DNA of 64,000 bases from Chitinophagaceae bacterium (GTDB taxonomy: Bacteria > Bacteroidota > Bacteroidia > Chitinophagales > Chitinophagaceae), in contig CBDHHD010000016.1 in NCBI GenBank assembly GCA_965263285.1, forward strand, positions 2,005,859 through 2,069,858. The letters run 5' to 3'. The notes under the pieces are model-generated. The model made no database searches, was not told the origin of the DNA, and worked only from the letters and a program-made list of their open reading frames with translations. Shown here one piece after another: positions 45,363-64,000 of this stretch (positions are counted from its first letter, which is position 1; each line of letters begins with the position of its first letter). The position numbers and the translations under genes are program-made.

Positions 45363-45388
45363 ATTGCAGATATAAATAGATTTGATTG

Positions 45389-45422
45389 TTTGTTGAGATG
45401 AGAAATAATTATATTAGCTTTG
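45389..45422 (+). promoter_or_regulatory. Candidate Bacteroidota-type promoter (TTTG ... TAnnTTTG) for gene 2
   Basis: TTTG at 45389-45392 and TAGCTTTG at 45415-45422, separated by 22 nt, with the -7-like box 16 nt upstream of ATG 45438. No Shine-Dalgarno-like purine run is present. Motif match only. Confidence 0.25.
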
Positions 45423-45437
45423 TGTTAAAATTTATGT

Positions 45438-46770
45438 ATGCATCTTGATTTAGATAATAGCCTTCTACTATCACCTTATCAAGAGTTGTTTTTTTATGAG
45501 TGGGAATTAGATCCATTAGGCTATAATGTATTCTTTTTACAGGAAATCCATGGTTTTTTAGATATAGAAAGATTATCCTTGGCGTGGAAAAGAATAGTGA
45601 GGGATTTTTTATATTATCACCTATATGTTTCAAAAGAACAAGGTAAAATTTTATTAGCTTCATTTGATAATCGATCTAGTTCTATAGAGTATATTGATCA
45701 AGCTTTGTCATTTGATGAAATAAAGAGTTTGATTAGAAAGCCATTTGATTTAACGAATAAAAGTAGCTTAACAAGACTGTGTGTTATTAAAAAAGGAATA
45801 GATAAATATTGTATTTTGTTTGTGTGTCATCATCTTATCAGCGGTGGGATGATTATATATGAGTTTGTTCGGTTACTTTCAAATTATTATAATGATATTC
45901 ATTTTAGATATTCGATTTCAATTAAAACTCAACAACAAGAAAATCTTCTTTTTGTAAGGAAAGTTAAAGGGATGTTAGAAACACATCGTGAGATTTTAAT
46001 GAATTTTTGGAGAGAGAAATTAGAGGGAGGAGAGAGTATATCTTTAGACTTTTTAAAGCTACCTCAAGGGGCATATAAATATAATAAAGAAAATAAAATT
46101 TTTAGATACTATTCTGTTCCTCTTGAATATGTTATGGGAGTGGCAAGATTAGCGAAACAGCGTGTTGTAACAGACTATATTATTTATATAACGACTTTGT
46201 CTGTTCTTTTTTATAAACATTTATATGAAGCTCCCTCTAAATTATTGTTTTCTTTGCCCTACCTTTTAAATAGTAAGGCGTATATACAAGGAGTTAATAA
46301 TATTTTTATTCCTTTTTGTATTACTCGTACAAAGAGTTTTTTATGCTTGCTGGAGGATACAAAAGGATTTTTTAAGGAAATTAAAAAGACATTAGTAATA
46401 GGAGAAGAAGTTATTCCTGCCTATACCCCTACTTATTGGATGATAGATGCAGGGGATATTCATAGATTAGATAGGCCAGTAGCGCTAGTGCAACAAGACA
46501 ATGTGAGTAAATTATTGTTTTCTTTTGATGGCACAAGTAAAGGAGAGTGGCAATATGATACGTTTGAGAGCACTATGTTTTCAGATAGGCTAACAATAAA
46601 TATGCAAAGAGTAGGTGAACAAGGTATTCGTTTTTTTGTGGAATGCAAAGAAACTGGAATAAATGAGCAGTTAATGGATGTTTTTTTTGAAAGATATTTT
46701 AAATTGTTAGGGGATGTTTTGTTAGATGCAACTAAAACTATTGGCGAATATAATATACTTACAGATAAGG
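45438..46770 (+). other. N-terminal condensation domain of gene 2 (starter position, degenerate active-site motif)
   Basis: About 445 aa preceding the first A domain. LSPYQELFFYEW at the N-terminus and HHLISGG instead of HHxxxDG. No close sequence relative among the other C domains in the window. Confidence 0.7.
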
Positions 46771-48628
46771 AATATCAATACCTGTTATATGATTACAACA
46801 AAACAGAAAGAGACTACCCCAAAGATAAAACCATACACCAGCTATTTGAAGAACAAGTAACACGAACGCCGAATAACATAGCAGTGGTATTTGAGGAGAA
46901 AGAATTAACTTATCAAGAGTTAAATAATAAAGCTAATCAGTTAGCCTATTATTTGTATAATAATTATCAAACTAAAGCGGATGATATTATTTGTTTGTTA
47001 TTAGAGCGCAGTGAATGGATGATTATTGCTATTTTAGGGGTGCTTAAGAGTGGAGCTACTTATTGTCCTATCTCTCCTGAGTATCCCGAAGAGAGAGTGT
47101 TGTTTGTTTTACAAGACACTCAACCTAAGTGCTTAATTACAAATTGCAAATTGAAAATTGAAAATGTTCAGTTTCCAATTGTTAATGTAACAGATGAACA
47201 ATTTCTAAAAGAATTATATTCATTTACCATTAACCATTTACCATTAACCATTAGCTCTCGTTCTTTAGCATATATTATCTATACTTCAGGTACAACGGGG
47301 AATCCTAAGGGAGTGATGATTGAACATGGCGGAGTTATAAATCTTATCTATGCTTTAGATAAGAGTCATTTTTGGCAAGATGAAGAAAGAATGCTTAATT
47401 TTTTCTCATATATTTTTGATCCATCAGTGGAGCAATTTTTTATACCTCTTCTAAAAGGATTTACTCTTTTTATGATATCAGAAGAGTTAATACAAGATGT
47501 AAATGGTTTAATTAATTTTATAAACAAAAATAAAATTACACATTTTGACACGACACCTTCTTATTTTGATAGTTTGCCAATAGTTACATTAGCAACATTA
47601 AATAGATTGATTCTTGGGGGAGAGAGGTTAACAAAAGAAACAAGAAATAAAGCATATAAAACAGTATTGGATAATACACTTTTTTTTAATGAGTATGGGC
47701 CTACGGAGACTACTATTACTAGCCTTGTTTCTTCTTTAAACAATACAATTGATTTGAATATAGGATCTCCCATATCTAACACTTGTATATATATATTAAA
47801 TAAAGAGGGTCTTTTATTACCCCAAGGAAGCGTTGGTGAGTTATACATTGGAGGCGATGGAGTGGCAAGAGGATATTTGAATAGACCCGAATTAACTGTG
47901 GAACGGTTTATAAAAAATCCTTTTCAAACAGAAGAAGAGAAACAAAAAAATAGAAATGGGCGACTATATAAAACAGGAGACATAGTGCGCATGCTACCCG
48001 ATGGCAATATTGAATATATAGGCAGAAATGATTTTCAAGTGAAGATACGAGGCTATAGAATTGAATTAGGGGAGATAGAGAATAGAATTCAAGGATTTCA
48101 GACTAGGATTGAAGGATTAAAGGATGAACAAGTTATTGAACAAGCTGTAGTATTGGTTAATGAGAAAGCGGATAATAAATATTTAGTGGGATATTTTGTG
48201 GCTAAGGAGCAAGTGGATGTAGAAGAATTAAGAAGCTATTTATCTAAGCAATTACCAGAATATATGGTGCCTACAGGACTAGTGCAAATAGAACAAATGC
48301 CTTTAACGGTGAATGGTAAGTTAGATAGAAAAGCATTGTTAAATATTGAATATAAAATAATTGATGAGTCTATAGAACTGCCAAAGAACAATACGGAAGA
48401 GCTATTGTTAAAGATATGGTCAAATTTATTGAAAATCTCAGAATCTGAGATAAGTGTAACGCAATCTTTTTTTAGATTAGGCGGGAATAGTTTGCTGTCT
48501 ATTCGATTGGTTGGTCAATTGAATAGAGAGCTGCTAGTGCAACTAAGTGTAAAAGATATTTTTGCTTATCCTACTATTAGAGAGATATCGCATATCATTG
48601 AACAAAAAGATACGGGATTTGTATATCA
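45438..48628 (+). other. Gene 2 module 1: N-terminal C (starter position)-A-T
   Basis: C1-like LSPYQELFFYEW. C3 reads CHHLISGGM (His 45828-45833; GGT 45843-45845 where Asp is expected). Pocket code DPEDIGEITK (GAC 47547-47549 versus CAC in gene 1 module 10). T GGNS with Ser 48489-48491. Confidence 0.8.
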
Positions 48629-51600
48629 AGATTATATGTTGACTGATATAAAAAAGGAGGATTATAGTTTGTTTCCGTTAAATAATGTGCAACAAGCTTA
48701 TTATATGGGGAGAATAGATTTGTTTGAGATAGGCAATATTTCTACAGGGGGCTATAGTGAGTTTGTTGTGGATGATTTATCCGTTGAAAATTTAGAAAAA
48801 GCTTTAAATCGTTTAGTGCTAAGACATGCAGGTTTGCGAACTGTTTTTACTGATCAAGGTCAACAGATTTTACCAGCTGATAATTGTCATTATTCTATTC
48901 CTGTTAATAAAATAACGACAGAAGAAGCCTTGTTAGATATTAGGAACAGGCTATTAAATATGAAGGTAGATGTAGCAAGGTTTCCTATAATCGTTATAGA
49001 AGTGTCAGAGTATAAAGGTTCGTATGTTATTCATTTTATGTCTGATGCTATTATTATGGATGATAATAGTATGCGAATATTTTTTACTGAGTTGGTAAAG
49101 ATTTATAATAATCTGGATATTGTATTGCCCACGCTGCATATTACATATCATGAATATATTTTAGCGCTACAACGCATTCGTGATAGTAAATTGTTTGACA
49201 AAGCAAAAACATATTGGGAGACTAAGTTAGAGGATTATGATTTTAGCTGTAATCTTCCGATAGTGATAGAACCATCAATGGTTAAGCAGTCTACTACTAA
49301 AAGGGGTTTAAGGATAATAGAGAAAGAGACGTATGATATATTACAGGAGAAATTAGCTAAAATACAACTGAGTCCTACTTCGCTGTTATTGTCATTATAT
49401 GGTAAGGTATTATGTCGTTGGTCAGGTCAAGATAAATTTAGTATTAATTTGACTTTGTTTAATCGCTTGCCGTTACATAAAGAGGTGAATGATATATTGG
49501 GTGATTTTACAAATTTAGAGTTGTATAATTATGATGATGTAAAAAGTAGAGATATTGTAGAGCATTATTTAAAAGGAGTACAAAATGTTCTTTGGGATGA
49601 TATAGAGAATAATCTATTTGATGGGATTGACTTTCAAAGATTGATAAGAGAGCGAAAACAATGGTCTATTTCCAAGGCTATAGCTCCGATTGTATTAACG
49701 AGTGTATTAGGATTTAAAGAAAAAAAAGAAGAAGGGGATGTTGTTAATTTATTTGGGCGACAACATTATTCTATTTCAAGAACATCACAGGTTTGGATAG
49801 ACAATGCGGTATATGAAGATTATAATGGCAATTTGATTCTTCGTTGGGATTTTGTAGAGCAGTTATTTTTACCTGAAGTAATAGAGGGGATGTTGGATGA
49901 GTATGCTTATTTGATAAGGAAGATAGCAGCGATGGATATACAGAGGGATAGATTGGAATTTTATAGATTGCCTGCCACTTATCAACATATTATTGAAAAA
50001 TATAATGCTACTGCAGAAGAATATGATGTGAAGACAATTATAGACTTCTATGACAACTGTGTTATACAAGATGCATGCAAGTGTAATGCTATTGCTGTGG
50101 TGGAAGGAGGGAATAATAAGCAAGCATATAAACATAGAGAAGTGGCTATAGGATTTAAAAATATAGCTACTCATCTATATAAGTATTATAAAGAAGAACA
50201 AACTGTTGCTATTTTATCTGAGAAAGGCTACAATCAAGTAGTGAGTAGTCTTGGTATTATGCAATCGGGTCAAGCTTATATTCCTTTGAATATTCATTGG
50301 TCTGCGAGCAGGATACTTGAGATAATGGAGGAGAGTGGCACGAAGGTGTTATTGATTTCTAAAAAGGAGTATGAGCATAAGAGACAATTACAAGTATCAA
50401 ATATAAGGCTATTGATTATTGAGGAATTATTAACAAAAGAGCGGGAGAAAAATATTCATTTGCCGATTGTATTGCTTTCAGATATAGCTTATATTATCTA
50501 TACGTCAGGTAGTACGGGTAAACCTAAGGGAGTGGCGATTAGCCATGAGAATATGATGAATACCATTATAGCAGTGAATAATAGATATAAAGTTACAGAA
50601 AAGGATAGTGTATTGGCATTGTCTGAATTGAGTTTTGATTTATCTGTTTATGATATTTTTGGTTTGTTATTAGTGGGAGGGGGAATTGTTTTTGTGAATG
50701 ATGAAGAGAGACAAGATCCTCATCATTGGTTATCGCTCATTGAAAAGCATAAAATTACTTTATGGAATACAGTGCCTCAATTAGCCGATTTGTTGGTAGA
50801 TGAGGCAAGGACGAGAGAAATGAGATTGGATAGTATAAGACTATATCTGTTAAGTGGCGATTGGTTGCCTTTGCAATTACCTGACAAGATAAAACGGCAA
50901 TCTAAAGATACACAAGTAATAAGTTTAGGAGGAGCAACGGAAGGCAGTATTTGGTCAATATGGTATGAGATTAAGAATATAAATCCAGATTGGAAAAGTA
51001 TTCCTTATGGTTATCCCATGCCTAATCAGCAAATCTATATTTTAAATCACGAATTGATTCATTCACCTGTTGGGGTTGAGGGAGATATTTATATAGGAGG
51101 CAAGGGAGTGGCGCAAGGATATTGGAATAATGAGGAGCAAACAGACAAACAATTTAAAGAACATCCCGAATTAGGGAGGATATATAAAACAGGAGATAGG
51201 GGTATTTTGCATGCAGAGGGATGGGTAGAGTTTAGAGGCAGAAAGGATTTTCAAGTGAAGATAAGGGGGTACAGAGTAGAATTAGAGGAGATTGAAAATA
51301 AATTAAATAAATTAGAGGGAGTTAAACAATCGGCAGTGCAGTTGTTTAAAAAGAATAATAGTGAAGTGTTGGTAGGCTTTGTGGTTAGAGAGCAACTAAT
51401 AACTAAAGGAGTAGATGAAAACTTTGATAAGGAAGTCTTTAAGTTAGAACAAAGAGGAATAAGAAAGGATTTAACAGATACTATAACCTTTAATGATAAT
51501 GGTATTGATGAGGAGTTATATAGATTAACTAAGAGCTATAGGAATTTTGGAGATAGATTTGTAGATGCTTCATTGATAGATACTATTATTAGAGAAGCCA

Positions 51601-54600: not shown

Positions 54601-57600
54601 AACAATTTCTAAAAGAATTATATTCATTCACCATTCACCATTTACCATTAATCATTAGCTCTCATGCTTTGGCATATCTTATTTATACCTCAGGAACAAT
54701 GGGGAATCCCAAGGGAGTGATGGTAGAACATGGTTCAGTAATAAATCTTCAAATGGCACAGAGTAGAATATGGTTAGTGCCTATAAAAGAAAATAAGATT
54801 TTTAGATTATTGTTATATGCTAATTATTCTTTTGATGCATTTGTTTCTGAGCTATTTGTCTCTATTTGTAATGGACACACCTCTTATCTCATATCTTCAG
54901 ATATACAACAAGACTTTTATCTATTAGCAAATTATATTCAAATTAATAATATAGAAATAGCCACTTTACCCCCAGCTATTTTACAAAAAGATGTTTTTTT
55001 GTCTCTTGATAAAATGATATTAGCAGGAGAATCACCGAATATAGATATAATAAAAAGGTATTATGAACAAGAGATAGAAGTATTTAATGCGTATGGACCC
55101 ACTGAAATTACAGTGTGCGCTACCATGCATCATTATAGCATGGGTGATAACAATAATAATATAGGGAAGCCTATAGATAATAAGTCTATATATGTATTAA
55201 ATAATAATCTACAGTTGTTACCCATAGGATCTATTGGCGAATTATACATTGGAGGTGATGGCTTGGCAAGAGGATATTTGAATAGACCCGAATTAACTGC
55301 GGAAAGATTTATTAAAAACCCTTTTCAAACAGAAGAAGATAAAAAGAAAGATAGAAATAGCAAACTCTACAAGACAGGTGATTTGGTTAGAATGCTCCCC
55401 GATGGTAATATTGAATATATAGGGAGAAATGACTTTCAAGTGAAGATAAGGGGTTATAGAATTGAATTGGGAGAGATAGAGAATAGGATTCAAAGATTTC
55501 AGACTAGGATTCAAGGATTTCAGGATTTTAGGATGATAGAACAAGCTGTGGTATTGGTTAATGATAAAGGAGATAATAAATATTTAGTGGGTTATTTTGT
55601 GGCTAAGGAGCAAGTGGATGTAGAAGAATTAAGAAGTCATTTGTCTAAGCAATTGCCTGACTATATGGTGCCTACAGGGCTGGTGCAAATAGAGCGGATG
55701 CCTTTAACGGTGAATGGCAAATTGGATAGAAAGGCATTATTAGCCATAGAATATAACCTTACTGATAGCAAAGAATATAAAGCCCCTAAAAATGAATTAG
55801 AACAACAGCTACTATCTATTTGGGAGAAATTACTGGGCAATAATAACATAGGAGTACAAGATGATTTTTTTAGGGTAGGGGGAGATAGCATTAAATCTAT
55901 TCAGTTGAGTAGCAGAGTGAGAAGTGAATTAGGAAAGGAATTAAGTGTGAAAGATGTTTTTGAACATAGAACCATTGAAAGAATGGTAGCGCATGTATTG
56001 AGTAACCATCAAATTAAAGTGTATCTATCTGAACAAGGCAAACTATCAGGCGAGTTGTCCTTATTGCCGATACAACAATATTTTTTTGAATTAAAACTAA
56101 CGAATGAACATCATTATAATCAATCTTTTTTAATAGAGACCCCAGAATTAGAGATAGAAAAATTGAAGATAGCGATAGAAAAAGTTGTTGAACACCATGA
56201 TGCATTCAGACTTACCTATAGAAAAGATGCAGAAGGAAATATTATTCAATATTATGATAGTAAGAAAGAAGCCATACTATTAGATGTTCTTGATATTAGC
56301 GAATGGAATGTGCAAGAAGGAACTGTTGTATTTGAAGAGAAATTAAAAAAGCAATACACGAGTTGGCAAGATAGTTTTAACATCTACGAGAGGAAGACTT
56401 ATCAAATAGCTTATATTCATGGCTATAAAAATAAGACAGCGAGAATATTTATTGCTGCACATCATCTTATTATTGATGCAGTGAGTTGGCGTATTTTGTT
56501 GGAAGATATAGAAACAGTGTATGCAGGCAAGAAGCTATTAGCTAAACGAACCAGCTATCGCCAATGGGTAAATTTGGGGAAAGATTATGTCGCACATTAT
56601 CCCAATGAATTAAGTTATTGGGAAGGTGTAGAGAAGAAAGTGCAAGAGAATATTGCAAAATTATCATCAAAGATTACTATACAAGAAGAGAGCTATTTTA
56701 CAATTATTACAATAGATAGAGATATAACTAATTATCTATTGCTATCTTCGAATCAAGTATTTCATACAGAGATAAACGATTTATTATTAACTGCCTTAGC
56801 AAGAGCCTTAGGAAAGTTATTTGATGAGCAGGAGGTATCTATTCTATTAGAAGGTCATGGGAGAGAGTCGTTACAAGACGATATAGATATTTCTAAGACA
56901 ATGGGCTGGTTTACGAGTATTATACCTATTCATTTGCCTATATATGATAATGTGCAAGAGTCAATTATTGAAGTAAAGGAGGAGTTGAGAAGAATTCCCA
57001 ATAAAGGCATTGGTTATGGATTTATAAGAGGCTATAAGCATTTGCCAAAGATTAGCTTTAACTACTTGGGAGTATTTAAGAAAGAAGAGCAACAAGATTG
57101 GTTTTTAACAAACGAATCAAGTGGGATATCGGTATCTAATAAAAATAAAAGCAATCTTTGGTTAGATATCAATGGGGGAGTGGGTGTAAATGGTGTTTTG
57201 GTATTTTCAATACGAGGAAGGCTGACTAAGGAATATATAGATAATCTTTCAATATATTTTAAGCAAGAAATGATTGTTATTACTAATTATATTCAGTCAG
57301 TCAATCGTTCTTATCTTACTACAAGTGATACGAATTATATAGTAAGCAAGGACTTGCTCAATAGATTGCAACAAGAAAATGAGATACAAGCCATTTATGT
57401 AGCCAATAGTTTGCAAGCAGGATTTATTTATCATTATTTGAGTAAGTCTGAAGGAGACGATGCGTATAAAGTTCAGTTATTGTGGAAATATAAAAGCCAA
57501 GTGAATGAGGATTATTTTATTCAGTCATGGCAACAAGCCTTAGATCGTTATCCTGGGTTAAGAGTTCGGTTTAATTGGGAAGAAGAGATAGTGCAGATTA

Positions 57601-60600
57601 TAGATAAGAAGATAACATTAGATTATCGATTTAGAGATATTCAGCATAAGAGAAATAAAGAAAAAGCGATAGAGACTATTAGAATAGAAGATAGGAAAGA
57701 GGACTATGATTTAGCAAAGGGTAATTTATTAAGGGTTTATTTGATAAAAGTAGATAAAGAAGAGTTTGTAGTTTTATATAGTAATCATCATGTAATCAGT
57801 GATGGATGGAGTAATCCTAATTTATTAAATTATATTCATGAAGTTTATAACAGTTTAATAAACCAAAATACACCAGTTGAACTATTAGAGGATCAAGCCT
57901 ATTTGAGGGCACAAGAATATTTGCAAGTAAAAAGTAAAAAGGATACACATGATAGATGGTGGGTAGATTATCTATCCGGTGTAGAAAGAACGATAGAAGT
58001 AAGGGGATTGAGAAAGCAAGAGGCGAACGGTATTAATCTGTTAGACTACAAATTTATTCAAGAACCCATCTCAAAAGGGGTTAAGATAAGAGATAAGGAA
58101 TACAGAGCTTTGTCAAGTTTTATTAAACAAGAAGGACTTACCTGGAGTAATTTAATCATGTGGTGTTGGAGCAAGGCATTAAGTGTATATGACAATAGGA
58201 ATGAGAACATTATTGGTATAACACTTTCAGGCAGAAGCTTGCCAATTAATGATATAGAGCAATCGGTAGGCTTGTATATCAACACACTACCCTTGGTAGT
58301 GCGACATGATTCTAATGAGAGCATATTAAATATATTAAAGAATATTCAGAAAGATACGGAGCAATTGAATCAGCTAACGCATACTCATTTAAGTGGTTTA
58401 CATAGCAATGCTTCAGATCGTTTATTTGTAACAATGGTAGTGTATGAGAATTATCCAAGACCTACAAACAAAGATAATCAAGATGCACATGCATTATTGC
58501 CTATATTTTTATCATCAGTAGAAAAGACAGATTATCCATTGACTGTATTGGCTTATGAGAAAGATAGTGTGCTTAGTGTAGAAATCAAATATGCGGGCGA
58601 GTTGTTTGAGGAGAAGCAAATAGAAAGGCTATTAAAATTAATGTCTTTGCTATTGCAACAAATCCCTATTTGTTACAATAAATTAGAACAAGAACTTAGA
58701 TTAATAGATAATGAAGAATACAATTATCTTGTATACGATTATAATAAAACAGAAAAAGAATACCCCAAAGACAAAACCATACATCAGTTATTTGAGGAGC
58801 AAGTGGCACGAACGCCGAATAATATAGCCGTGGTATTTGAGGAGAAGCAATTAACCTATCAAGAGTTGAATGACAAAGCAAATCAGTTAGCAAATTATTT
58901 GCACAATAATTATCAAACTAAAGCAGACGATATTATTTGTTTATTATTGGAGCGCAGCGAATGGATGATTATTGCCATCTTAGGAGTGCTTAAGAGTGGA
59001 GCTGCTTATTGTCCTATCTCACCTGAGTATCCAGAAAAAAGAATTTTATTTGTTCTACAAGATACACAGCCTAAGTGTTTAATTACAAATTGCAGATTGA
59101 AAATTGAAAATGTTCAGTTGCCGATTGTTAATGTAATAGATGAACAATTTCTAAAAGAGTTATATTCATTTACCATTTACCATTTACCATTAATCATTAG
59201 TCCTCATGCTTTAGCATATATTATTTATACCTCTGGAATAACAGGAAGCCCTAAGGGGGTAATGATAGCACATGTAACTTTTTCTCATGCTATTCAAAAT
59301 TTAATTGCTCTTTTTTCAAAGAGTTTAACTTCTTTTAATACTTATAGTACTACAAATTATACTTTTGATATTTTTGGATTAGAATATACCCTTCCTTTAT
59401 TACATGGTAATGTGCTTACTCTGGGTAGTATGCATGAGAATTTGAATTTGAATTTATATGATTTTATTCAAATTACACCTACTGTCTTACAAAGTTATTT
59501 ATCTACTATTAATAAAATTAATCCTAATTTAATATGGTTAATAGGAGGAGAAAAAGTGCCTATGGCTTTATTAACAGACATATTAAAAAGAAGTGCTAAA
59601 AGAGAAGTAAATATTTATAATGTATATGGTCCTACCGAAACAACTATTTGGTCTGTAGTTTATTTCTATAATAGAAGAGCAGTTGAATTGGGTATAGAGT
59701 CTATTGGTAAGCCTATTGATAACACAGTTGTTTATATTTTAGATAGTGATAAGAGGTTGTTACCTATGGGTGCTATGGGAGAATTGTATATTGGAGGTGA
59801 TGGCGTAGCAAGAGGATATTTGAATAGACCTGAATTAACTGCGGAACGATTTATAAAAAATCCTTTTCAAACTGAAGAAGAGAAACAAAAAAATAGAAAT
59901 GGGCGACTATATAAAACAGGAGATGTAGTGCGAATGCTATCCGATGGTAATATTGAATATATAGGGAGGAATGATTTTCAAGTGAAGATAAGGGGCTACA
60001 GAATTGAATTGGGAGAGATAGAGAATAGGATTCAAGGATTTCAGACTAGGATTGAAGGATTAAAGGATGAACAATTTATTGAACAAGTCGTGGTATTGGT
60101 TAATGAGAAAGCGGATAATAAATATTTAGTGGGATATTTTGTGGCTAAAGAAAAAGTGGATGTAGAAGAATTAAGAAGTTATTTGTCTAAGCAATTGCCC
60201 GAATATATGGTACCTATAGTATTGTTACAAATAGAGCAGATGCCTTTAACGATAAATGGCAAGTTGGATAGAAAGATACTGTTAGATATGAACGCTAATT
60301 TTGTAGAAGATAATATGGAAGCTCCAGCTAATAAATTAGAATTAAGGATGTTACAGATTTTTGCTACGCTATTATCGCTTGAGTCTAATACCATAAGTGT
60401 AACTAATAGCTTTTTTAGACTTGGGGGGAATAGTATTTTGTCGATTAGGTTGGCGAGTCTTTTAAATAGGGAATTTGGTACATTCTTAAGTGTAGTAGAT
60501 ATTTTCAAATACCCTACTATTAGAGAATTGGCAGTTCAAGTAAATTATAAAAAAACTTCATTTGACTTAATTTTAATGCTAAACAATAGTGTTGCTAAAC

Positions 60601-61307
60601 AAATAATTTATATGGTACATCCTGGAGGAGGAGGTGCAGAGGTGTATTATAATATGGCGTATAGATTACAAGAATCTTATAGATGTTATGGCATTGGTAA
60701 TTATAATTTATTTTCAGATAATAAGATGAGTGAGATAAGTCTATTAGCAAAGTATTATCTACATGAAATTAAAAATAACACAACAATAGAGCCTTGTATT
60801 TTATTAGGCTGGTCGTTAGGAGGAAAGATAGCATTAGAAATGGCTTGTCATTTAGAACAACAAGGTATTAAAGATATTGTTGTTTATCTATTAGACACTA
60901 CTATAATGGATGAAACGCTAACAAATATCTTAAACAAAAAAGATATGAGTTTTAGAAAACAAGCATTAAATGAATTACTAGATAATTTGAATGTAGGTGA
61001 AGATTATAAGCAAAGAATATTAGCTAATAGATCTATTGAAGAAAAACTTAATAATGGTGTATTAACTGGCAAGCTAATATATAGTCGTTGTGTTTTATTT
61101 AAAGCGATGCTATCTGATAAAGATGAAATTGCCGATTTTTTTCAATACAAATTATCATTGCCTTATAATAATGTAGATAAATTTGTTTCTATAGAAAATA
61201 TTAAACTAATAGAAATGCAAGTTAGTCATCAAGATATTATTAAAAAAGAAGATGAAATAGTAGATGTTATTAAGCAAAGAACATTGTTAAAACGGATCTT
61301 CCTATGA
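45438..61307 (+). CDS. Four-module non-ribosomal peptide synthetase (gene 2): C-A-T / Cy-A(Ox)-T / C-A-T-E / C-A-T-TE
   Basis: ATG 45438 to TGA 61305-61307, 5,289 codons, 75 nt downstream of the gene 1 stop. The first residues (LSPYQELFFYEW) resemble a C-domain C1 motif, so this ATG is a plausible true start. Same motif set as gene 1; ends in a GWSLGG thioesterase. Confidence 0.96.
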   Translation: MHLDLDNSLLLSPYQELFFYEWELDPLGYNVFFLQEIHGFLDIERLSLAWKRIVRDFLYYHLYVSKEQGKILLASFDNRSSSIEYIDQALSFDEIKSLIRKPFDLTNKSSLTRLCVIKKGIDKYCILFVCHHLISGGMIIYEFVRLLSNYYNDIHFRYSISIKTQQQENLLFVRKVKGMLETHREILMNFWREKLEGGESISLDFLKLPQGAYKYNKENKIFRYYSVPLEYVMGVARLAKQRVVTDYIIYITTLSVLFYKHLYEAPSKLLFSLPYLLNSKAYIQGVNNIFIPFCITRTKSFLCLLEDTKGFFKEIKKTLVIGEEVIPAYTPTYWMIDAGDIHRLDRPVALVQQDNVSKLLFSFDGTSKGEWQYDTFESTMFSDRLTINMQRVGEQGIRFFVECKETGINEQLMDVFFERYFKLLGDVLLDATKTIGEYNILTDKEYQYLLYDYNKTERDYPKDKTIHQLFEEQVTRTPNNIAVVFEEKELTYQELNNKANQLAYYLYNNYQTKADDIICLLLERSEWMIIAILGVLKSGATYCPISPEYPEERVLFVLQDTQPKCLITNCKLKIENVQFPIVNVTDEQFLKELYSFTINHLPLTISSRSLAYIIYTSGTTGNPKGVMIEHGGVINLIYALDKSHFWQDEERMLNFFSYIFDPSVEQFFIPLLKGFTLFMISEELIQDVNGLINFINKNKITHFDTTPSYFDSLPIVTLATLNRLILGGERLTKETRNKAYKTVLDNTLFFNEYGPTETTITSLVSSLNNTIDLNIGSPISNTCIYILNKEGLLLPQGSVGELYIGGDGVARGYLNRPELTVERFIKNPFQTEEEKQKNRNGRLYKTGDIVRMLPDGNIEYIGRNDFQVKIRGYRIELGEIENRIQGFQTRIEGLKDEQVIEQAVVLVNEKADNKYLVGYFVAKEQVDVEELRSYLSKQLPEYMVPTGLVQIEQMPLTVNGKLDRKALLNIEYKIIDESIELPKNNTEELLLKIWSNLLKISESEISVTQSFFRLGGNSLLSIRLVGQLNRELLVQLSVKDIFAYPTIREISHIIEQKDTGFVYQDYMLTDIKKEDYSLFPLNNVQQAYYMGRIDLFEIGNISTGGYSEFVVDDLSVENLEKALNRLVLRHAGLRTVFTDQGQQILPADNCHYSIPVNKITTEEALLDIRNRLLNMKVDVARFPIIVIEVSEYKGSYVIHFMSDAIIMDDNSMRIFFTELVKIYNNLDIVLPTLHITYHEYILALQRIRDSKLFDKAKTYWETKLEDYDFSCNLPIVIEPSMVKQSTTKRGLRIIEKETYDILQEKLAKIQLSPTSLLLSLYGKVLCRWSGQDKFSINLTLFNRLPLHKEVNDILGDFTNLELYNYDDVKSRDIVEHYLKGVQNVLWDDIENNLFDGIDFQRLIRERKQWSISKAIAPIVLTSVLGFKEKKEEGDVVNLFGRQHYSISRTSQVWIDNAVYEDYNGNLILRWDFVEQLFLPEVIEGMLDEYAYLIRKIAAMDIQRDRLEFYRLPATYQHIIEKYNATAEEYDVKTIIDFYDNCVIQDACKCNAIAVVEGGNNKQAYKHREVAIGFKNIATHLYKYYKEEQTVAILSEKGYNQVVSSLGIMQSGQAYIPLNIHWSASRILEIMEESGTKVLLISKKEYEHKRQLQVSNIRLLIIEELLTKEREKNIHLPIVLLSDIAYIIYTSGSTGKPKGVAISHENMMNTIIAVNNRYKVTEKDSVLALSELSFDLSVYDIFGLLLVGGGIVFVNDEERQDPHHWLSLIEKHKITLWNTVPQLADLLVDEARTREMRLDSIRLYLLSGDWLPLQLPDKIKRQSKDTQVISLGGATEGSIWSIWYEIKNINPDWKSIPYGYPMPNQQIYILNHELIHSPVGVEGDIYIGGKGVAQGYWNNEEQTDKQFKEHPELGRIYKTGDRGILHAEGWVEFRGRKDFQVKIRGYRVELEEIENKLNKLEGVKQSAVQLFKKNNSEVLVGFVVREQLITKGVDENFDKEVFKLEQRGIRKDLTDTITFNDNGIDEELYRLTKSYRNFGDRFVDASLIDTIIREAKHIKVKTKNVGDSLLTKDKIARVLTRLQGKSLSDKILPKYLYPSGGSAYPIECYVRVSALGIKGIEGGVYYYHPLNNALQRVEDHSNNNQDSIELIVNWSAIKPLYGDFADKLVWIELGHILELLSTELNRLGIAFDIQIKQENRDESKMVLAEIVLGVDGNQIEQLTSELTAYYVSKRGNIYEGLIDLDKYSVFDRAIEQAKILENGKGMIVVECDSRIDKACIVSQWIGSGIMIERVKQQLLQYDIGGCPLGSEFGENELYSMVIGYIANEEKTKGESKVAVDKLSKVINDNLGLPDYMSLQEIVFLDSMPLTANGKLDKSRLSDPEIEWQSYIAPVTKEEQEMVEIWSEILNIDKGKISIEGSFFNLGGHSITAIRLISKINSRFNFGLSFKDLFEYPTIRGLIKNSITLKQREQEGDYMPYQLIDSGVVISKEDYEDCYPAGMLQLGMFFEQEKLGHGTYLAFQIQYFSGKCNREKIESCLQTIINRHDILRTVYRMLEDGNIYALVQKRVEVKSKLFFVTDSIEEVRKKEIALAFNREIAGLYRFYIIEQAEGFVLFFSFHHAILDGYSLNLFIRELVDLYQHDNDKLYEEEQSKLLYGEFIRNELSALKNEDTRLFWREYLAESILLTPQWNFSKSNGISVVAERQQIEGLRLRQIEDIASKYSCTVEELLLLSYMTVLSLFFNERDITIGLEKHNRIEKEGGDRQLGLFVTMLPFRYELRDKEALGTALSRLRDSVRKIVNHKQYPYNEIKQQLGGRDLFDIAYSYNDFSHFVGNEKRTHINEFLNEELSNITSILFICKVYKYSGGYGFVFSGHSNNIDQAYLSYFVRYYNSVLDQLYKEERVVFKLMDEDYQYLVYDYNKTEKEYPKDKTIHQLFEEQVARTPNNIAVIFEDKKLTYQELNNKANQLAHYLHNNYNTKADDIICLLLERSEWMIISILGVLKSGAAYCPISPEYPEERILFILQDTQPKCLITNCTLEIENVQFPIVNVTDEQFLKELYSFTIHHLPLIISSHALAYLIYTSGTMGNPKGVMVEHGSVINLQMAQSRIWLVPIKENKIFRLLLYANYSFDAFVSELFVSICNGHTSYLISSDIQQDFYLLANYIQINNIEIATLPPAILQKDVFLSLDKMILAGESPNIDIIKRYYEQEIEVFNAYGPTEITVCATMHHYSMGDNNNNIGKPIDNKSIYVLNNNLQLLPIGSIGELYIGGDGLARGYLNRPELTAERFIKNPFQTEEDKKKDRNSKLYKTGDLVRMLPDGNIEYIGRNDFQVKIRGYRIELGEIENRIQRFQTRIQGFQDFRMIEQAVVLVNDKGDNKYLVGYFVAKEQVDVEELRSHLSKQLPDYMVPTGLVQIERMPLTVNGKLDRKALLAIEYNLTDSKEYKAPKNELEQQLLSIWEKLLGNNNIGVQDDFFRVGGDSIKSIQLSSRVRSELGKELSVKDVFEHRTIERMVAHVLSNHQIKVYLSEQGKLSGELSLLPIQQYFFELKLTNEHHYNQSFLIETPELEIEKLKIAIEKVVEHHDAFRLTYRKDAEGNIIQYYDSKKEAILLDVLDISEWNVQEGTVVFEEKLKKQYTSWQDSFNIYERKTYQIAYIHGYKNKTARIFIAAHHLIIDAVSWRILLEDIETVYAGKKLLAKRTSYRQWVNLGKDYVAHYPNELSYWEGVEKKVQENIAKLSSKITIQEESYFTIITIDRDITNYLLLSSNQVFHTEINDLLLTALARALGKLFDEQEVSILLEGHGRESLQDDIDISKTMGWFTSIIPIHLPIYDNVQESIIEVKEELRRIPNKGIGYGFIRGYKHLPKISFNYLGVFKKEEQQDWFLTNESSGISVSNKNKSNLWLDINGGVGVNGVLVFSIRGRLTKEYIDNLSIYFKQEMIVITNYIQSVNRSYLTTSDTNYIVSKDLLNRLQQENEIQAIYVANSLQAGFIYHYLSKSEGDDAYKVQLLWKYKSQVNEDYFIQSWQQALDRYPGLRVRFNWEEEIVQIIDKKITLDYRFRDIQHKRNKEKAIETIRIEDRKEDYDLAKGNLLRVYLIKVDKEEFVVLYSNHHVISDGWSNPNLLNYIHEVYNSLINQNTPVELLEDQAYLRAQEYLQVKSKKDTHDRWWVDYLSGVERTIEVRGLRKQEANGINLLDYKFIQEPISKGVKIRDKEYRALSSFIKQEGLTWSNLIMWCWSKALSVYDNRNENIIGITLSGRSLPINDIEQSVGLYINTLPLVVRHDSNESILNILKNIQKDTEQLNQLTHTHLSGLHSNASDRLFVTMVVYENYPRPTNKDNQDAHALLPIFLSSVEKTDYPLTVLAYEKDSVLSVEIKYAGELFEEKQIERLLKLMSLLLQQIPICYNKLEQELRLIDNEEYNYLVYDYNKTEKEYPKDKTIHQLFEEQVARTPNNIAVVFEEKQLTYQELNDKANQLANYLHNNYQTKADDIICLLLERSEWMIIAILGVLKSGAAYCPISPEYPEKRILFVLQDTQPKCLITNCRLKIENVQLPIVNVIDEQFLKELYSFTIYHLPLIISPHALAYIIYTSGITGSPKGVMIAHVTFSHAIQNLIALFSKSLTSFNTYSTTNYTFDIFGLEYTLPLLHGNVLTLGSMHENLNLNLYDFIQITPTVLQSYLSTINKINPNLIWLIGGEKVPMALLTDILKRSAKREVNIYNVYGPTETTIWSVVYFYNRRAVELGIESIGKPIDNTVVYILDSDKRLLPMGAMGELYIGGDGVARGYLNRPELTAERFIKNPFQTEEEKQKNRNGRLYKTGDVVRMLSDGNIEYIGRNDFQVKIRGYRIELGEIENRIQGFQTRIEGLKDEQFIEQVVVLVNEKADNKYLVGYFVAKEKVDVEELRSYLSKQLPEYMVPIVLLQIEQMPLTINGKLDRKILLDMNANFVEDNMEAPANKLELRMLQIFATLLSLESNTISVTNSFFRLGGNSILSIRLASLLNREFGTFLSVVDIFKYPTIRELAVQVNYKKTSFDLILMLNNSVAKQIIYMVHPGGGGAEVYYNMAYRLQESYRCYGIGNYNLFSDNKMSEISLLAKYYLHEIKNNTTIEPCILLGWSLGGKIALEMACHLEQQGIKDIVVYLLDTTIMDETLTNILNKKDMSFRKQALNELLDNLNVGEDYKQRILANRSIEEKLNNGVLTGKLIYSRCVLFKAMLSDKDEIADFFQYKLSLPYNNVDKFVSIENIKLIEMQVSHQDIIKKEDEIVDVIKQRTLLKRIFL
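48629..52846 (+). other. Gene 2 module 2: Cy-A(Cys)-Ox(embedded)-T, thiazole-forming
   Basis: Cy DAIIMDDNS (49044-49061). Pocket code DLYNLSLIWK. YPSGGSAYP at 51723. T Ser 52719-52721. All landmarks lie 15,948 nt after those of gene 1 module 9. Confidence 0.85.
51395..52445 (+). other. Embedded Ox domain, copy 4 (gene 2)
   Basis: Same motifs (YPS at 51723). Confidence 0.75.
52847..57323 (+). other. Gene 2 module 3: C-A-T-E (Tyr/Phe-like, D-configured)
   Basis: C His 53295-53300. Pocket code DASTIAAVCK (9/10 to a Tyr code DASTVAAVCK as I recall it; TCT 54846-54848 versus TTT in gene 1 module 8). T Ser 55887-55889. E His 56460-56465. Confidence 0.8.
57324..61304 (+). other. Gene 2 module 4: C-A-T-TE (Gly-like, terminating)
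   Basis: C His 57786-57791. Pocket code DILQLGVIWK. T Ser 60432-60434. TE GWSLGG with Ser 60813-60815. Confidence 0.85.
60556..61304 (+). other. Thioesterase domain of gene 2
   Basis: YMVHPGGGGAE, GWSLGG (Ser 60813-60815), YLLDT, QVSHQD. The last four residues (RIFL) differ from the gene 1 tail (DANKEL). Confidence 0.85.
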
Positions 61308-61381: not shown

Positions 61382-61455
61382 CTACAAAACCATGGTATGT
61401 AATTTTATTTTTAACTTATGTAAAATATTGGTCTGATCTTCATTGAAAACATTAG
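61382..61455 (-). pseudogene. IS-B transposase gene, displaced 3' end
   Basis: Conceptually removing IS-A plus one TTAG copy joins ...IQIKKVP to NVFNEDQTNILHKLKIKLHTMVL-stop (TAG at 61384-61382) in the same frame. Confidence 0.65.
61452..61455. repeat. Target-site duplication TTAG (left)
   Basis: TTAG lies immediately outside the left IR and is repeated at 63689-63692, immediately outside the right IR. Confidence 0.7.
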
Positions 61456-61469
61456 CCCAACTTGGTAAA
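61456..61469. repeat. IS-A terminal inverted repeat (left)
   Basis: CCCAACTTGGTAAA, the exact reverse complement of 63675-63688. Confidence 0.85.
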
Positions 61470-61523
61470 CGACATTACGCAAATGATTGACAGTAAAGCG
61501 TTTGCGTGATTACAACTCGTTTT

Positions 61524-63485: not shown

Positions 63486-63674
63486 AGTGCAAAAATAAAG
63501 GCTCAAAATGAGAAAAACAATATTTTTTAAAATATTAACAAAAGATTAACTTATTTTAGGGACTACAAATTCGGTTTTTCGCACTTTTTTGTTTTTCAAA
63601 ATATTCAAAATCAATACTTTATAAAATTGACACCCCCTAAAAAACAGCCGTTTTTACTGCTTTTTTCCTACTTT

Positions 63675-63688
63675 TTTACCAAGTTGGG
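63675..63688. repeat. IS-A terminal inverted repeat (right)
   Basis: TTTACCAAGTTGGG, the exact reverse complement of 61456-61469. Confidence 0.85.
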
Positions 63689-64000
63689 TTAGGTACTTTC
63701 TTTATTTGAATATCTTTGTTTTTATAAATTTGATATTGAATAGCATTGAGACTTTCTAATATACTAGCTTGTGTTAACCCAAGTGTTTTGCATTCGTCCC
63801 ATATATATTTCATTATTATATAACCTAACATGCATACAAACACATGTCCCCTTGTTCTACTTTCTTTTCTAACATACACTGGCTGTATTTCTTCAAAGCT
63901 TTGTTTAAAAGTTCTAAATGCTTGCTCTACCAAGGCTAAATCTTTGTACTTTTGATGTATATATTCCTTATCCCCATCTCTTTCATTTACATTCGTTTTA
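63676..64000 (-). pseudogene. IS-B transposase gene (IS4/IS1634-like), upstream part; interrupted by IS-A and running off the right window edge
   Basis: The minus-strand frame is open from 64000 (the track start at 63933 is an in-frame TTG). It encodes ...KDLALVEQAFRTFKQSFEEIQPVYVRKESRTRGHVFVCMLGYII..., paralogous to the C-terminal catalytic region of the IS-A transposase. The last 4 sense codons plus the stop (63676-63690) read into the IS-A inverted repeat. Confidence 0.75.
63689..63692. repeat. Target-site duplication TTAG (right)
   Basis: See the left copy. Confidence 0.7.

Follow-up and report, generated by a model that had tools for sequence, protein, structure and literature searches.

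Architecture of the locus

The window (the whole 64,000-nt stretch of DNA that was analysed) holds two NRPS genes on the forward strand, gene 1 and gene 2, followed by an insertion sequence on the reverse strand. Gene 1 occupies positions 1-45362 and exits the window at its left edge; its reading frame is open from base 3 and extends upstream, with 11 of its 13 modules inside the window. The remainder was taken from L005, a metagenome contig whose positions 17946-21185 match window positions 1-3240 at 99.75% identity (8 substitutions and zero indels); ENA sample ERZ26695388 holds a 99.75% relative. With L005 11261-17945 added, gene 1 encodes 17,348 aa in 13 modules, as a composite of sequence from two assemblies that differ by 0.25%. 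The original prediction was of a product of at least 11 residues; the overlapping contig raises the count of modules from 11 to 13. Their order is C*-A-T, C-A-T, three times C-A-T-E, Cy-A(Ox)-T, C-A-T, Cy-A(Ox)-T, C-A-T-E, C-A-T, Cy-A(Ox)-T, C-A-T-E and C-A-T-TE, where C* is a divergent N-terminal condensation domain.

Gene 2 (45438-61307, forward strand) encodes 5289 aa and is an intact four-module NRPS of the order C*-A-T, Cy-A(Ox)-T, C-A-T-E, C-A-T-TE, with all of the features listed below on the same strand. Its C* domain (45438-46757) carries the motif HHLISGG and is followed by the A domain of module 1 (46845-48320), which contains the cassette that we call e' (47100-47850; code DPEDIGEITK), and by a T domain with its serine at 48489. 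Module 2 starts with a heterocyclisation (Cy) domain (48774-49931) with DAIIMDDNS at 49044, continues with a Cys-specific A domain (50079-52556; code DLYNLSLIWK) that accommodates an oxidase insert of ~340 aa between A8 and A10 (~51270-52460), and ends with a T serine at 52719. Module 3 comprises a C domain (52917-53951; HHAILDG), an A domain (54249-55721) with the Tyr/Phe-like cassette d' (54710-55200; code DASTIAAVCK), a T serine at 55887 and an epimerisation (E) domain at 56049-57329, which, like the other E domains, matches TIGR01720. Module 4 (57387-60533) is built from a C domain with HHVISDG, a Gly-type A domain (DILQLGVIWK) and a T domain with its serine at 60432. The gene closes with a TE domain (60603-61292; PF00975 match at 60603-60896) containing GWSLG, with the serine at 60813, and retaining the His of VSHQD.

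Congruently with this layout, the Pfam families Condensation, AMP-binding, AMP-binding_C and PP-binding appear in the order expected of a modular NRPS. Motifs A3, A5, A7, A8 and A10 and the T serine are present in all four modules of gene 2 and in all 11 in-window modules of gene 1. The A3 loops of modules 3 and 4 of gene 2 are non-canonical (TSGTMGNPKG and TSGITGSPKG), and gene 1 likewise has non-canonical A3 loops. Both genes end in a TE of their own, as had been predicted, with GWSLG at 60807 in gene 2 and at 44856 in gene 1 and a candidate catalytic His (VSHQD) in each.

The Cy domains carry DxxxxD in place of HHxxxDG, at 49044 in gene 2 and at 13758, 21177 and 33096 in gene 1. The A domains of these modules have the code DLYNLSLIWK (DLYNLSLVWK in one copy), which is established as a code for Cys. 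In the A domains that bear the insert A8 and A10 lie ~437 aa apart, versus ~97 aa in the remaining A domains. The insert matches the BmdC oxidase (E=5e-6 over ~75 residues), McbC and SagB-type dehydrogenases, with a score of 46 bits against the SagB profile TIGR03605, under its cut-off of 78 bits. Judging from the Cy motif, the Cys code and the oxidase-like insert, the Cy-A(Ox)-T modules have the make-up of the thiazole-forming type. They resemble in these three respects the epothilone EpoB, bleomycin and bacillamide types (BmdC, 7ly4-7ly7), which share the Cy DxxxxD, the Cys code and an FMN-oxidase-like insert between A8 and A10, but the similarity of the insert to these oxidases is modest, and here four nearly identical copies are found in one locus.

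The two genes are joined by a canonical TE tail (..DANKEL*) and a 75-nt spacer (45342-45437, forward strand), which holds a TAGCTTTG box 15 nt ahead of the ATG of gene 2. A terminator scan of the spacer and the 3' end of gene 2 found none, and in a promoter scan of the same regions promoter-like matches were no commoner than in shuffled sequence. Four antisense ORFs of 168 aa gave no Pfam match and were treated as by-products of the repeats.

On the right-hand side, the homology of gene 2 with gene 1 and with a further upstream paralogue described below (gene 0) ends at 61292, and the last codons of gene 2 are aberrant (RIFL*), lacking the canonical ..DANKEL tail; we therefore regard 61292 as the right-hand breakpoint of the repeated region. 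Between gene 1 and gene 2 the homology stops at 45341/61292, which is 21 nt short of the stop codon of gene 1 and 15 nt short of that of gene 2. Beyond lies an IS1634-family insertion sequence (61452-63693, reverse strand) with 17-nt inverted repeats at 61453-61469 and 63675-63691 and a transposase ORF at 61524-63506; an exact look-up of this transposase found it not on record. We considered a direct truncation of gene 2 by this element; its inverted repeats start at 61453, 160 nt past the breakpoint, so that the element alone does not account for the truncation. Another copy of the element, on contig L006, lies in an unrelated genomic place and is uninformative on the boundary of gene 2.

A mosaic scaffold with probably exchangeable specificity cassettes

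Gene 2 was originally predicted to be a derivative of the tail of gene 1. The alignment of the two by blastn pairs 47833-54749 with 31906-38801 at 96.5% identity and 55187-61292 with 39242-45341 at 97.4%, a collinearity far beyond chance. The whole tail block of gene 1 (30864-45341, forward strand), with the order A(d)-T, Cy-A(Cys)-Ox-T, C-A(e)-T-E, C-A(Gly)-T-TE, is collinear with gene 2 from 46788 to 61292. In a global alignment the offset is 15,948 nt from 32162/48110, becomes 15,945 nt past the third A domain and changes to 15,951 nt past an extra AATTTG, a 6-bp duplication at ~59446-59457 (gene 2 GAATTTGAATTTGAATTTA, gene 1 GAATTTGAATTTA). A motif scan reproduced every coordinate pair given for the T serines (32541/48489, 36771/52719, 39942/55887 and 44481/60432), for the Cy DxxxxD (33096/49044) and for the TE serine (44862/60813). 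The E domain comes after the third T domain in both genes.

The order of the specificity cassettes differs, as predicted. According to the Stachelhaus codes the tail of gene 1 reads d-Cys-e-Gly (DAFTIAAVCK, DLYNLSLIWK, DPEHIGEITK, DILQLGVIWK) and gene 2 reads e'-Cys-d'-Gly (DPEDIGEITK, DLYNLSLIWK, DASTIAAVCK, DILQLGVIWK). Cassette d, in module 10 of gene 1 (31350-32000, forward strand; Phe-like), matches its positional counterpart in gene 2 at ~50% identity and the third-module cassette of gene 2 at 85-100%, and cassette e, in module 12 (38760-39200, forward strand), is 86-99% identical to the cassette of the first module of gene 2. Gene 2 is thus a complete, intact and TE-terminated four-module NRPS. 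Its modules align in order with the final four of gene 1, but the cassette type in position 1 of one gene occupies position 3 of the other, and vice versa. All A domains share this construction: their flanks are 78-100% identical (mostly 83-99%) and enclose a variable core of ~630 nt. The specificity cassettes measure ~0.45-0.63 kb and run from A3 to ~15 aa ahead of A7. As in A-core exchange, their breakpoints fall within the A domain and leave the C-A linker and the Asub-T region in place.

One account of these data would be that the final four modules of gene 1 were recently copied to form gene 2, in which cassettes 1 and 3 were then swapped with each other, giving a release-competent mini-line for a permuted form of the C-terminus of the long product. 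It is favored by a collinear stretch of 13-14 kb (96.5-97.4% identity, constant offsets), by the orders d-Cys-e-Gly and e'-Cys-d'-Gly, and by the presence of T-E-C-A(Gly)-T-TE within the window only in the tail of gene 1 and in gene 2, with stretches at 99-100% identity. The ages of the parts argue against it, and we consider it unlikely. The e and d cassettes have a dS of 0.24-0.30 (omega 0.12-0.18) versus 0.02-0.08 for the scaffold, that is, they are 3-4 times more diverged, and their dS is ~10 times the 0.023 of the Gly cassette. The first of these ratios makes it unlikely that the tail was recently copied and its cassettes swapped, and since the dS of the cassettes is far above that of both the scaffold and the Gly cassette, e' and d' were not copied from the tail along with the scaffold. 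A recent permutation does not agree with the dS values for the individual pairs (e/e', 0.30; d/d', 0.24; scaffold, 0.07-0.08; Gly cassette, 0.023). Moreover, d' is equally close to the cassettes of module 1 and of module 10 (the d of the tail) of gene 1, and the C* start and the spacer are common to all members of the array described below.

The scaffold itself points in the same direction. Positions 47835-54731 of gene 2 are also collinear with an internal block of gene 1 (19968-26864, forward strand; C-terminal part of an A domain and T, Cy-A(Cys)-Ox-T, C and the N-terminal part of an A domain) at 96.8% identity and an offset of 27,867 nt, compared with 96.5% for the tail block. Across 6588 nt the T-Cy-A(Cys)-Ox-T-C scaffold of gene 2 shows 187 differences from the internal block and 192 from the tail, so that these first 6.6 kb are as near to one as to the other, and a derivation from the tail in particular is not borne out. 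Three-way site patterns among gene 2, the tail and the internal block (53/69/48) are clustered, with a longest run of 15 (permutation p<5e-5), and form a mosaic in which conversion tracts alternate. Gene 2 and the tail are between ~91% and 100% identical, with runs of >1 kb at 100%, and a patch of gene 2 at 58200-58500 resembles the C domain of module 10 of gene 1 (30331-30780) more closely than the segment at the same position in the tail. We also rejected a plain tandem duplication with a period of 15.9 kb; it would predict a third tail-spacer-C* unit after gene 2, which is absent, and a uniform divergence, which is not seen.

The same pattern extends over the array, in which 45% of the 300-nt segments have a paralogue at ≥98% identity, 68% at ≥95% and 86% at ≥90%. 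At 2434-2649, four consecutive differences between L005 and the window show the base of a paralogue 4545 nt off, like a conversion tract.

Repeats of this kind are hard to assemble, with runs of >1 kb at 100% identity and ~6 kb at 97-99%, and the arrangement of the gene 1 tail and gene 2 could, wholly or partly, be a chimera between near-identical repeats or strains. The linkage of the two comes from one assembly of a very repetitive region, which is the one that covers the 45.3-45.5 kb junction in this organism; the related contig L003 matches window positions 45370-47327 but represents a different paralogue. Some of the differences between L005 and the window, as mentioned, match the paralogue 4545 nt off. 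Against an artefact, more than 327 sites separate the two copies, with a dN/dS of ~0.2, their cassettes differ, and gene 2 has a start domain of its own; they are therefore distinct sequences rather than a single locus that was assembled two times. In addition, the reading frames are unbroken over 45 kb and 15.9 kb, the junction of TE, 75 nt and C* was assembled independently in L005 between gene 0 and gene 1, and a TE-stop/C*-start junction is found in the distant relative L001. We regard a chimeric arrangement as very unlikely.

A tandem array of genes with a common N-terminal domain

In L005, gene 1 starts at 11261 with C* and is preceded by T-TE, a ..DANKEL* tail and a 75-nt spacer. This region (9634-13168) matches window positions 43798-47345 at 93.9% identity; gene 0/gene 1 and gene 1/gene 2 are joined by the same TE tail and spacer. 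Gene 0, seen in L005 only, has two modules and the same C*...TE form, and it is degraded: within 7.1 kb its frame is interrupted by one in-frame stop and four frameshifts, compared with none of either for gene 1 on L005 over at least 9.9 kb. The closest genome is a MAG of 33% GC that bears the label Phycisphaerales. We found no tRNAs on the related loci, and a literature search for the accessions JASGCP, GCA_030053995 and ERZ26695388 returned no paper.

C* is an N-terminal domain. It opens every gene that carries it (gene 0, gene 1, gene 2 and the genes of L001, L002, L003 and L004); its DNA occurs once within the window, and in L005 the first domains of gene 1 and gene 0 match it at ~95% identity. 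When its profile was run against 1.84 billion representative proteins, the best 150 matches included 50 of full length, and 49 of these begin within the first 32 residues of the matched protein. Many of the full-length relatives among the matches listed are single-module C-A-T-R enzymes. Close relatives are scarce (3 matches among 5.8 billion proteins); a scan of JGI metagenomes gave no relatives of C*, and the homologues of the TE in them are all at ≤40% identity. One Rickettsiales MAG and one Treponema MAG are among the relatives of C*.

The motif of C*, HHLISGG (HHLINGG in L001), keeps both His residues and has Gly in place of Asp in all four aligned C* sequences, and so departs from the canonical HHxxxDG of starter C domains. 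With phmmer nothing in the PDB reached E<0.01. When we compared a four-sequence profile with the PDB the matches were weak, the best being the starter C domain of surfactin SrfA-A (8f7f; E=1.4e-4), just slightly ahead of ordinary C domains (E=7e-4). C* is like that domain in its strictly N-terminal position and its HH dyad, and 8f7f is its best solved match, but the match is very weak (23.9 bits) and HHxxxGG stands against HHxxxDG. An AlphaFold2 model from a three-sequence alignment had a pLDDT of 36.6 and was unusable. No acyl-activating gene, FAAL or ACP was seen in the window; in L003 the gene ahead of the C* gene is a PKS ending in ACP-TE. Taken from its position and its relatives, C* would be a starter-type C domain with a possible acylating role.

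The two genes had been proposed to form two release-competent lines. The architecture fits two separately released products, and at that level each gene is a separate line with its own loading function and TE; the count of two falls short, as at least three C*...TE genes lie in tandem, one of them degraded. Alternatively, all modules could work as one long line, in which the TE of gene 1 is bypassed, the C* of gene 2 takes the 13-mer from the last T domain and a 17-mer is released by the TE of gene 2. Both genes lie on one strand, separated by a 75-nt gap in which no terminator was found, and TE-then-C* junctions recur in relatives, as this reading would have it. However, the homologues of C* in L002 and L004 open NRPS genes that come after unrelated genes. 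The full-length relatives of C* are nearly always N-terminal, many of them in the C-A-T-R enzymes mentioned above; the TE of gene 1 has an intact GWSLG and the candidate catalytic His, and by inspection we saw no docking sequences after the TE. A single line is, in our judgement, highly improbable.

Gene 2 also appears to be under selection, as its intact ORF and a dN/dS of ~0.2 suggest. Its dN/dS is 0.20-0.26, and its 5289 codons at 32% GC contain zero stops versus ~10 expected under neutrality (P about 4e-5). Part of the low dN/dS and of the intact ORF could reflect import from functional paralogues by conversion. This leads to a further alternative, in which gene 2 is a dispensable relic that makes no product, decays like gene 0 and is kept intact-looking by conversion from gene 1. 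The degraded state of gene 0 in the same array, the missing ..DANKEL tail and the proximity of gene 2 to IS elements, the non-canonical A3 loops of its modules 3 and 4 and a dN/dS rising to 0.47 across its last 1.8 kb would be in line with decay. Conversion does not account for e', d' and C*, which are without an identical donor in the window or in L005 and yet are intact, with an omega of 0.12-0.18 for the cassettes; nor would decay be expected to leave the frame without a stop and the catalytic Ser, His and Asp motifs all in place. We think it quite unlikely that gene 2 is such a relic.

The reading that we prefer, and hold to be probable with moderate confidence, is that starter-C/TE synthetases stand here in a tandem array that undergoes concerted evolution and exchanges A-core cassettes. 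The window would hold the right-hand two thirds of an array of at least three paralogous NRPS genes, namely gene 0 (two modules, degraded), gene 1 (13 modules) and gene 2 (four modules), with the same C*, TE and 75-nt spacer. The 75-kb array would be built from a few domain blocks (C*, C, Cy, A flanks, Ox, T, E and TE) that gene conversion and unequal recombination between modules keep 90-100% identical, while the A-core stretches of ~0.45-0.63 kb, which set the choice of substrate, would escape homogenisation and act as exchangeable cassettes. The collinearity of gene 2 with the tail would then be one case of array-wide concerted evolution, and the apparent permutation a difference in which older cassette occupies which slot.

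On this array model each intact gene would be an autonomous line, in which C* may N-acylate the first residue, Cy together with Ox would convert Cys to a thiazole, E would epimerise residue 3 and the TE would release the product. The predicted product of gene 2 is acyl-X(e')-thiazole-D-(Tyr/Phe-like)-Gly; for gene 1 a 13-mer is predicted that is acylated, contains three thiazoles and ends in Phe-like-thiazole-D-X(e)-Gly. We infer that the genes may be co-transcribed.

Precedents and significance

The original prediction knew of no described system with this arrangement, but precedents exist (PMC2569948, PMC9205934, PMC8097286, PMC4256081, PMC8256042). The likeness of gene 2 to the end of gene 1 would reflect ongoing copy-and-paste between repeats, a known mode of NRPS evolution and not a new kind of system.

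The mycolactone mls locus on pMUM of Mycobacterium ulcerans (mlsA1/mlsA2 and mlsB) has independent lines, each with its own loading module and TE, and >98% identical blocks (PMC2569948). Both loci combine separate lines that have a loading function and a TE of their own with near-identical blocks, homogenised by recombination-mediated domain replacement, and share giant genes, nearby IS elements and variants that arise by swaps of specificity domains (PMC2569948). As in mls, domains of the same function have near-identical DNA here and the sites follow mosaic tracts rather than one tree. In contrast, mls is a PKS locus and this one encodes NRPSs, its identity is 98.7-100% versus 90-100% here, its two products are joined into one molecule, whereas neither a joining enzyme nor a product is known for this locus, and the genes described here follow one another head to tail, with a conserved TE-spacer-C* junction between them and a pseudogene as one member (PMC2569948).

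In the wollamide/desotamide cluster, wolG1 and wolG2 likewise represent a TE-terminated NRPS gene duplicated in its cluster, with an A specificity changed by intragenomic recombination and two release routes (PMC9205934). WolG1 and WolG2, however, serve as alternatives for the final subunit and are supplied by one set of upstream enzymes; in this locus gene 2 begins with a starter-type C* and its counterpart is fused in cis to modules 1-9 of gene 1, and two cassettes differ rather than one (PMC9205934). The locus accordingly shares with wolG1/wolG2 a duplicated TE-terminated gene with a recombined A domain, but not free-standing subunits that share an intermediate.

The cassettes are like the A-core exchanges of Baunach et al. 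(2021; PMC8097286) in having their breakpoints inside the A domain. Their cases were inferred by comparing orthologous clusters across strains or species, whereas the cassettes described here occupy different slots of paralogous scaffolds in one locus. Homogenised domains, mosaic tracts and diverged segments that escape are also typical of concerted evolution (Medema et al., 2014, PMC4256081) and of GRINS (PMC8256042), the latter being defined in PKS genes. The extent found here (45% of a 75-kb NRPS array at ≥98%) is at the extreme end of reports on NRPSs, in which syringopeptin is cited as the extreme case (PMC4256081, PMC8256042).

A bolder reading, which we offer as doubtful speculation, would see in the locus a cassette-shuffling factory of an uncultured, IS-rich, low-GC bacterium: autonomous starter-C/TE synthetases whose interoperable scaffolds are re-dealt by conversion and unequal crossing-over, yielding a family of acylated thiazole peptides (a 4-mer, a 13-mer and others elsewhere in the genome), in which the short product, as a deliberately permuted fragment of the long one, might have a role of its own, for example as partner, antagonist or signal.

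The locus reveals no new kind of biosynthetic logic. If the assembly holds, it is an unusually clean natural experiment for NRPS engineering, in which d- and e-type cassettes work in different slots of near-identical scaffolds, one type after a starter C domain, an ordinary C domain or a Cy-made thiazole donor, and the other either before an E domain or not before one. These slots bear on the debate about acceptor gatekeeping by C domains and safe cut sites in A domains (PMC8097286), and the array would provide exact, field-tested breakpoints, from A3 to just before A7. On the same condition, it would be the NRPS counterpart of the mycolactone PKS locus and would contribute, from a lineage that has hardly been sampled, one very large NRPS of 17,348 aa and one starter-type C domain of a rare kind.

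Domain order and permuted specificity cassettes

The window has a GC content of 32%, a strong purine skew on the + strand, and contains two very long + strand ORFs plus an IS element. Gene 1, a giant NRPS gene, is open from base 3, ends at 45362 and extends past the window's left edge, while gene 2 (45438-61307, + strand) encodes 5289 aa in four modules. According to Pfam, NCBIfam and a motif scan, gene 2 reads C*-A-T, Cy-A(Ox)-T, C-A-T-E, C-A-T-TE, where C* is a divergent N-terminal condensation domain. The part of gene 1 inside the window reads three C-A-T-E modules, Cy-A(Ox)-T, C-A-T, Cy-A(Ox)-T, C-A-T-E, C-A-T, Cy-A(Ox)-T, C-A-T-E and C-A-T-TE. Each Cys module carries a ~340-aa A8-A10 insert that matches the bacillamide oxidase BmdC, McbC and SagB-type dehydrogenases, and the domains following 'VGGDSI' T domains matched TIGR01720, an epimerase-associated model. 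Four antisense ORFs of 168 aa (minus strand, 16756-17262, 24175-24681, 36094-36600 and 52042-52548) are identically placed in every Cys-module Ox/A10 block; none of the four had a Pfam match, and the repeat most likely generated them as a by-product.

The original prediction held that gene 2 derives from the tail of gene 1 (its last four modules) with the specificity cassettes permuted. Our motif scan reproduced all of its coordinates, and a global alignment recovered the offsets of 15,948, 15,945 and 15,951 nt and the extra AATTTG in gene 2. Stachelhaus codes were read by alignment to a GrsA-PheA segment, which we take from established knowledge as the reference. In order, they are DAFTIAAVCK, DLYNLSLIWK, DPEHIGEITK and DILQLGVIWK in the gene 1 tail, and DPEDIGEITK, DLYNLSLIWK, DASTIAAVCK and DILQLGVIWK in gene 2. 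The permutation is therefore real: the tail reads d-Cys-e-Gly and gene 2 reads e'-Cys-d'-Gly, and in each of them the E domain belongs to module 3.

Gene 2 appears constrained. Its dN/dS against paralogues is 0.20-0.26 (0.47 in the last 1.8 kb), with 0.18 for the e' and 0.12 for the d' cassette. A random substitution in gene 2 has a 6.2% chance of producing a stop. With half of the 327 scaffold differences (those in the blocks surrounding the cassettes) arising neutrally on gene 2, ~10 stops would be expected, and 0 are present (P about 4e-5). Its catalytic motifs are all preserved, and both genes have two A3 loops of non-canonical sequence. Import by conversion from functional paralogues could explain part of this constrained look, but for C*, e' and d' neither the window nor L005, a contig overlapping the window's left end, contains an identical donor.

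A conversion mosaic with older cassettes

The likeness of gene 2 is not specific to the tail. In blastn comparisons gene 2 47835-54731 was 96.8% identical (2 gaps) to an internal block of gene 1 (19968-26864) and 96.5% identical (8 gaps) to the tail at 31906-38801. At 6588 positions free of gaps, the differences number 192 between gene 2 and the tail block and 187 between gene 2 and the internal block. The collinearity stands, while an origin from the tail in particular is not supported. Three-way informative sites group gene 2 with the tail in 53 cases, gene 2 with the internal block in 69 and both gene 1 blocks together in 48. They are strongly clustered (81 runs in 172 sites, the longest of 15; 0 of 20,000 permutations equally clustered). 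Painting in 300-nt windows placed stretches of more than 1 kb at 100% identity next to stretches at 91-95%, and found a patch at 58200-58500 nearer to another gene 1 C domain than to its positional partner. Judged from the sequence, such a mosaic is the signature of repeated gene conversion rather than of one duplication event. Of all 300-nt windows in the 75-kb array, 45% have a paralogue with at least 98% identity and 68% one with at least 95%.

Two local cases were also observed. The DADLVGKVTK cassettes of gene 1 modules 3 and 4 (regions 1572-2310 and 6117-6855) are nucleotide-identical (dS = 0), indicating a very recent module duplication or conversion within gene 1. A run of four single-base differences separates window 2434-2649 from L005 20379-20594, each with the base found in the paralogous module 4545 nt downstream; this is either a strain-specific gene-conversion tract or assembly/consensus cross-talk between repeats.

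Cassette boundaries were drawn from an alignment of all non-Cys A domains. The flanks (first and last ~450 nt) are 78-100% identical across all of them, mostly 83-99%, and enclose a core of ~630 nt, from motif A3 to ~15 residues before A7, that is 35-60% identical between specificities and 85-100% inside a specificity group. The dS values are 0.30 for e vs e', 0.24 for d vs d' and 0.25 for d' vs the cassette in module 1 of gene 1, compared with 0.07-0.08 for the scaffold, 0.025 for the last 1.8 kb of the genes, 0.023 for the Gly cassettes and 0.04-0.075 for the Cys cassettes. By this measure the d/d' and e/e' cassettes are older than the scaffold. Had the tail been copied and its cassettes then swapped, these would be as young as the scaffold, so the dS values make a recent copy with swapped cassettes unlikely. 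Two readings remain: the scaffolds may have been homogenised after an older split, with the cassettes protected, or older cassettes may have been imported into a young scaffold. Under either one, the breakpoints coincide with the units of A-core exchange that Baunach et al. described (PMC8097286).

The C* domain and the upstream array

The C* DNA is unique within the window, and a search of 5.8 billion proteins returned only three relatives of its protein. Its active site reads HHLISGG, with both His kept, and it opens a gene in every case found. Among the best 150 matches of an exhaustive profile search of 1.84 billion representatives, counted by hand, 49 of 50 full-length C* matches begin within the first 32 residues of the matched protein; several of those starting near the N-terminus are C-A-T-R enzymes of about 1,460-1,510 aa. 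The best solved relative, a weak match, is the starter C domain of SrfA-A. We take C* to be a starter-type domain with a putative role in acyl transfer.

In this organism C* leads gene 0, gene 1, gene 2 and L003, a PKS-associated paralogue behind a gene ending in ACP-TE. L003 (ENA ERZ26695388 ctg116793, 1-14180; 2.4x coverage, many frame breaks) reads C*-A(Ser)-T-E-C-A(Phe-like)-T-E-C..., after a KS-AT-ACP-TE gene, and is 96.8% identical to window 45370-47327, starting 8 nt past gene 1's stop codon. C*-led genes thus occur at other sites in this population too, with their blocks arranged differently. GCA_030053995.1, a MAG of 33% GC, holds three C* genes of ~60% identity, one after a TE-terminated gene and two after unrelated genes. 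It is the only other genome in which relatives of C* (60%), the TE (52%) and the IS1634 transposase (59%) were seen (L001, L002 and L004), and its Phycisphaerales label looks doubtful for so low a GC content. The lineage is barely sampled.

L005 (ENA metagenome contig ERZ26695388 ctg148058) was found with the TE as query (95% identical protein). Its positions 17946-21185 equal window 1-3240 with 8 substitutions and 0 indels (99.75% identical), so it shows the window's upstream region in a near-identical strain. On L005 gene 1 starts 6685 nt upstream of the window; its opening C* is ~95% identical to that of gene 2, and two further modules follow (DASTIAAVCK and DVWHFSLIDK). The composite gene 1 (window 1-45362 plus L005 11261-17945) is one ORF of 17,348 aa and about 2 MDa, among the largest NRPS proteins known to us. 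In front of it lies gene 0 (L005 4034-11182), which reads C*-A-T-C-A(Val-like)-T-TE and ends in a ..LLKDANKEL* tail; this tail and the 75-nt spacer after it are those also found between gene 1 and gene 2. The segment across the junction is a repeat as well (L005 9634-13168 against window 43798-47345, 93.9%). Over 7.1 kb, gene 0 is broken by one in-frame stop and four frameshifts, and the adjacent gene 1 by none on L005, so gene 0 is probably a pseudogene. Two release-competent lines had been proposed; L005 adds this degraded third member to the array and brings gene 1 to 13 modules. Upstream of gene 0 there is a fragment of an IS66 transposase (L005 3033-3353), as well as a protein of 2915 aa with ricin-type lectin matches.

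In the 75-nt spacer neither a terminator nor a sigma-70 promoter above chance was found, and so co-transcription of genes 1 and 2 is possible. The spacers of the window, L005 and L003 keep TAGCTTTG (TAnnTTTG; 45415-45422, 15 nt before the gene 2 ATG), which we take to be a Bacteroidota-type -7 box, and gene 2, the transposase gene and the L001 gene all lack an upstream Shine-Dalgarno sequence; both features may hint at promoter type and taxon.

At its other end, gene 2 has a TE tail reading RIFL* in place of the canonical ..DANKEL*. Homology to the other array members stops at 61292, with IS sequences beyond, 160 nt short of the inverted repeat of an IS1634-family element (61452-63693; 17-nt repeats at 61453-61469 and 63675-63691) that encodes a 660-aa DDE transposase (61524-63506, minus strand). 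The 63 member sequences of its 90% cluster all come from ENA, and the sole contig retrieved for it (L006) is from the same ENA sample, which suggests an IS expansion. Region 63700-64000 resembles another transposase fragment by eye; one minus-strand frame gave no Pfam match.

Predicted products and precedents

Each intact gene would act as an autonomous line. C* would acylate residue 1, Cy would condense and cyclodehydrate Cys, Ox would oxidise the ring to a thiazole, E would invert residue 3 for a next C domain that takes the D-residue, and TE would release the product. The predicted products are acyl-X(e')-thiazole-D-(Tyr/Phe-like)-Gly for gene 2, the e and e' pockets having two acidic residues, and an acylated 13-mer with three thiazoles for gene 1. 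The gene 1/gene 2 junction is provisional, as it is taken from one assembly of a very repetitive region.

The observation in the original prediction was thus upheld and its interpretation in part, its claim that no such arrangement had been described being at odds with several precedents. The mycolactone mls genes encode independent lines that each possess a loading module and a TE, with >98% identical blocks reshuffled by recombination (PMC2569948). For wollamide, a TE-terminated NRPS gene was duplicated and intragenomic A-domain recombination followed (PMC9205934). Concerted evolution and conversion of megasynthase genes are documented as well (PMC4256081, PMC8256042). A wollamide-type bifurcation was rejected: gene 2 is equipped with a starter domain of its own, and its counterpart is here fused into gene 1. 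The description that fits the locus best is that of a homogenised multi-line megasynthase array of the NRPS type, in which A-core cassettes are exchanged. Known evolutionary processes account for it, and it offers a useful natural test of whether cassettes are interoperable.
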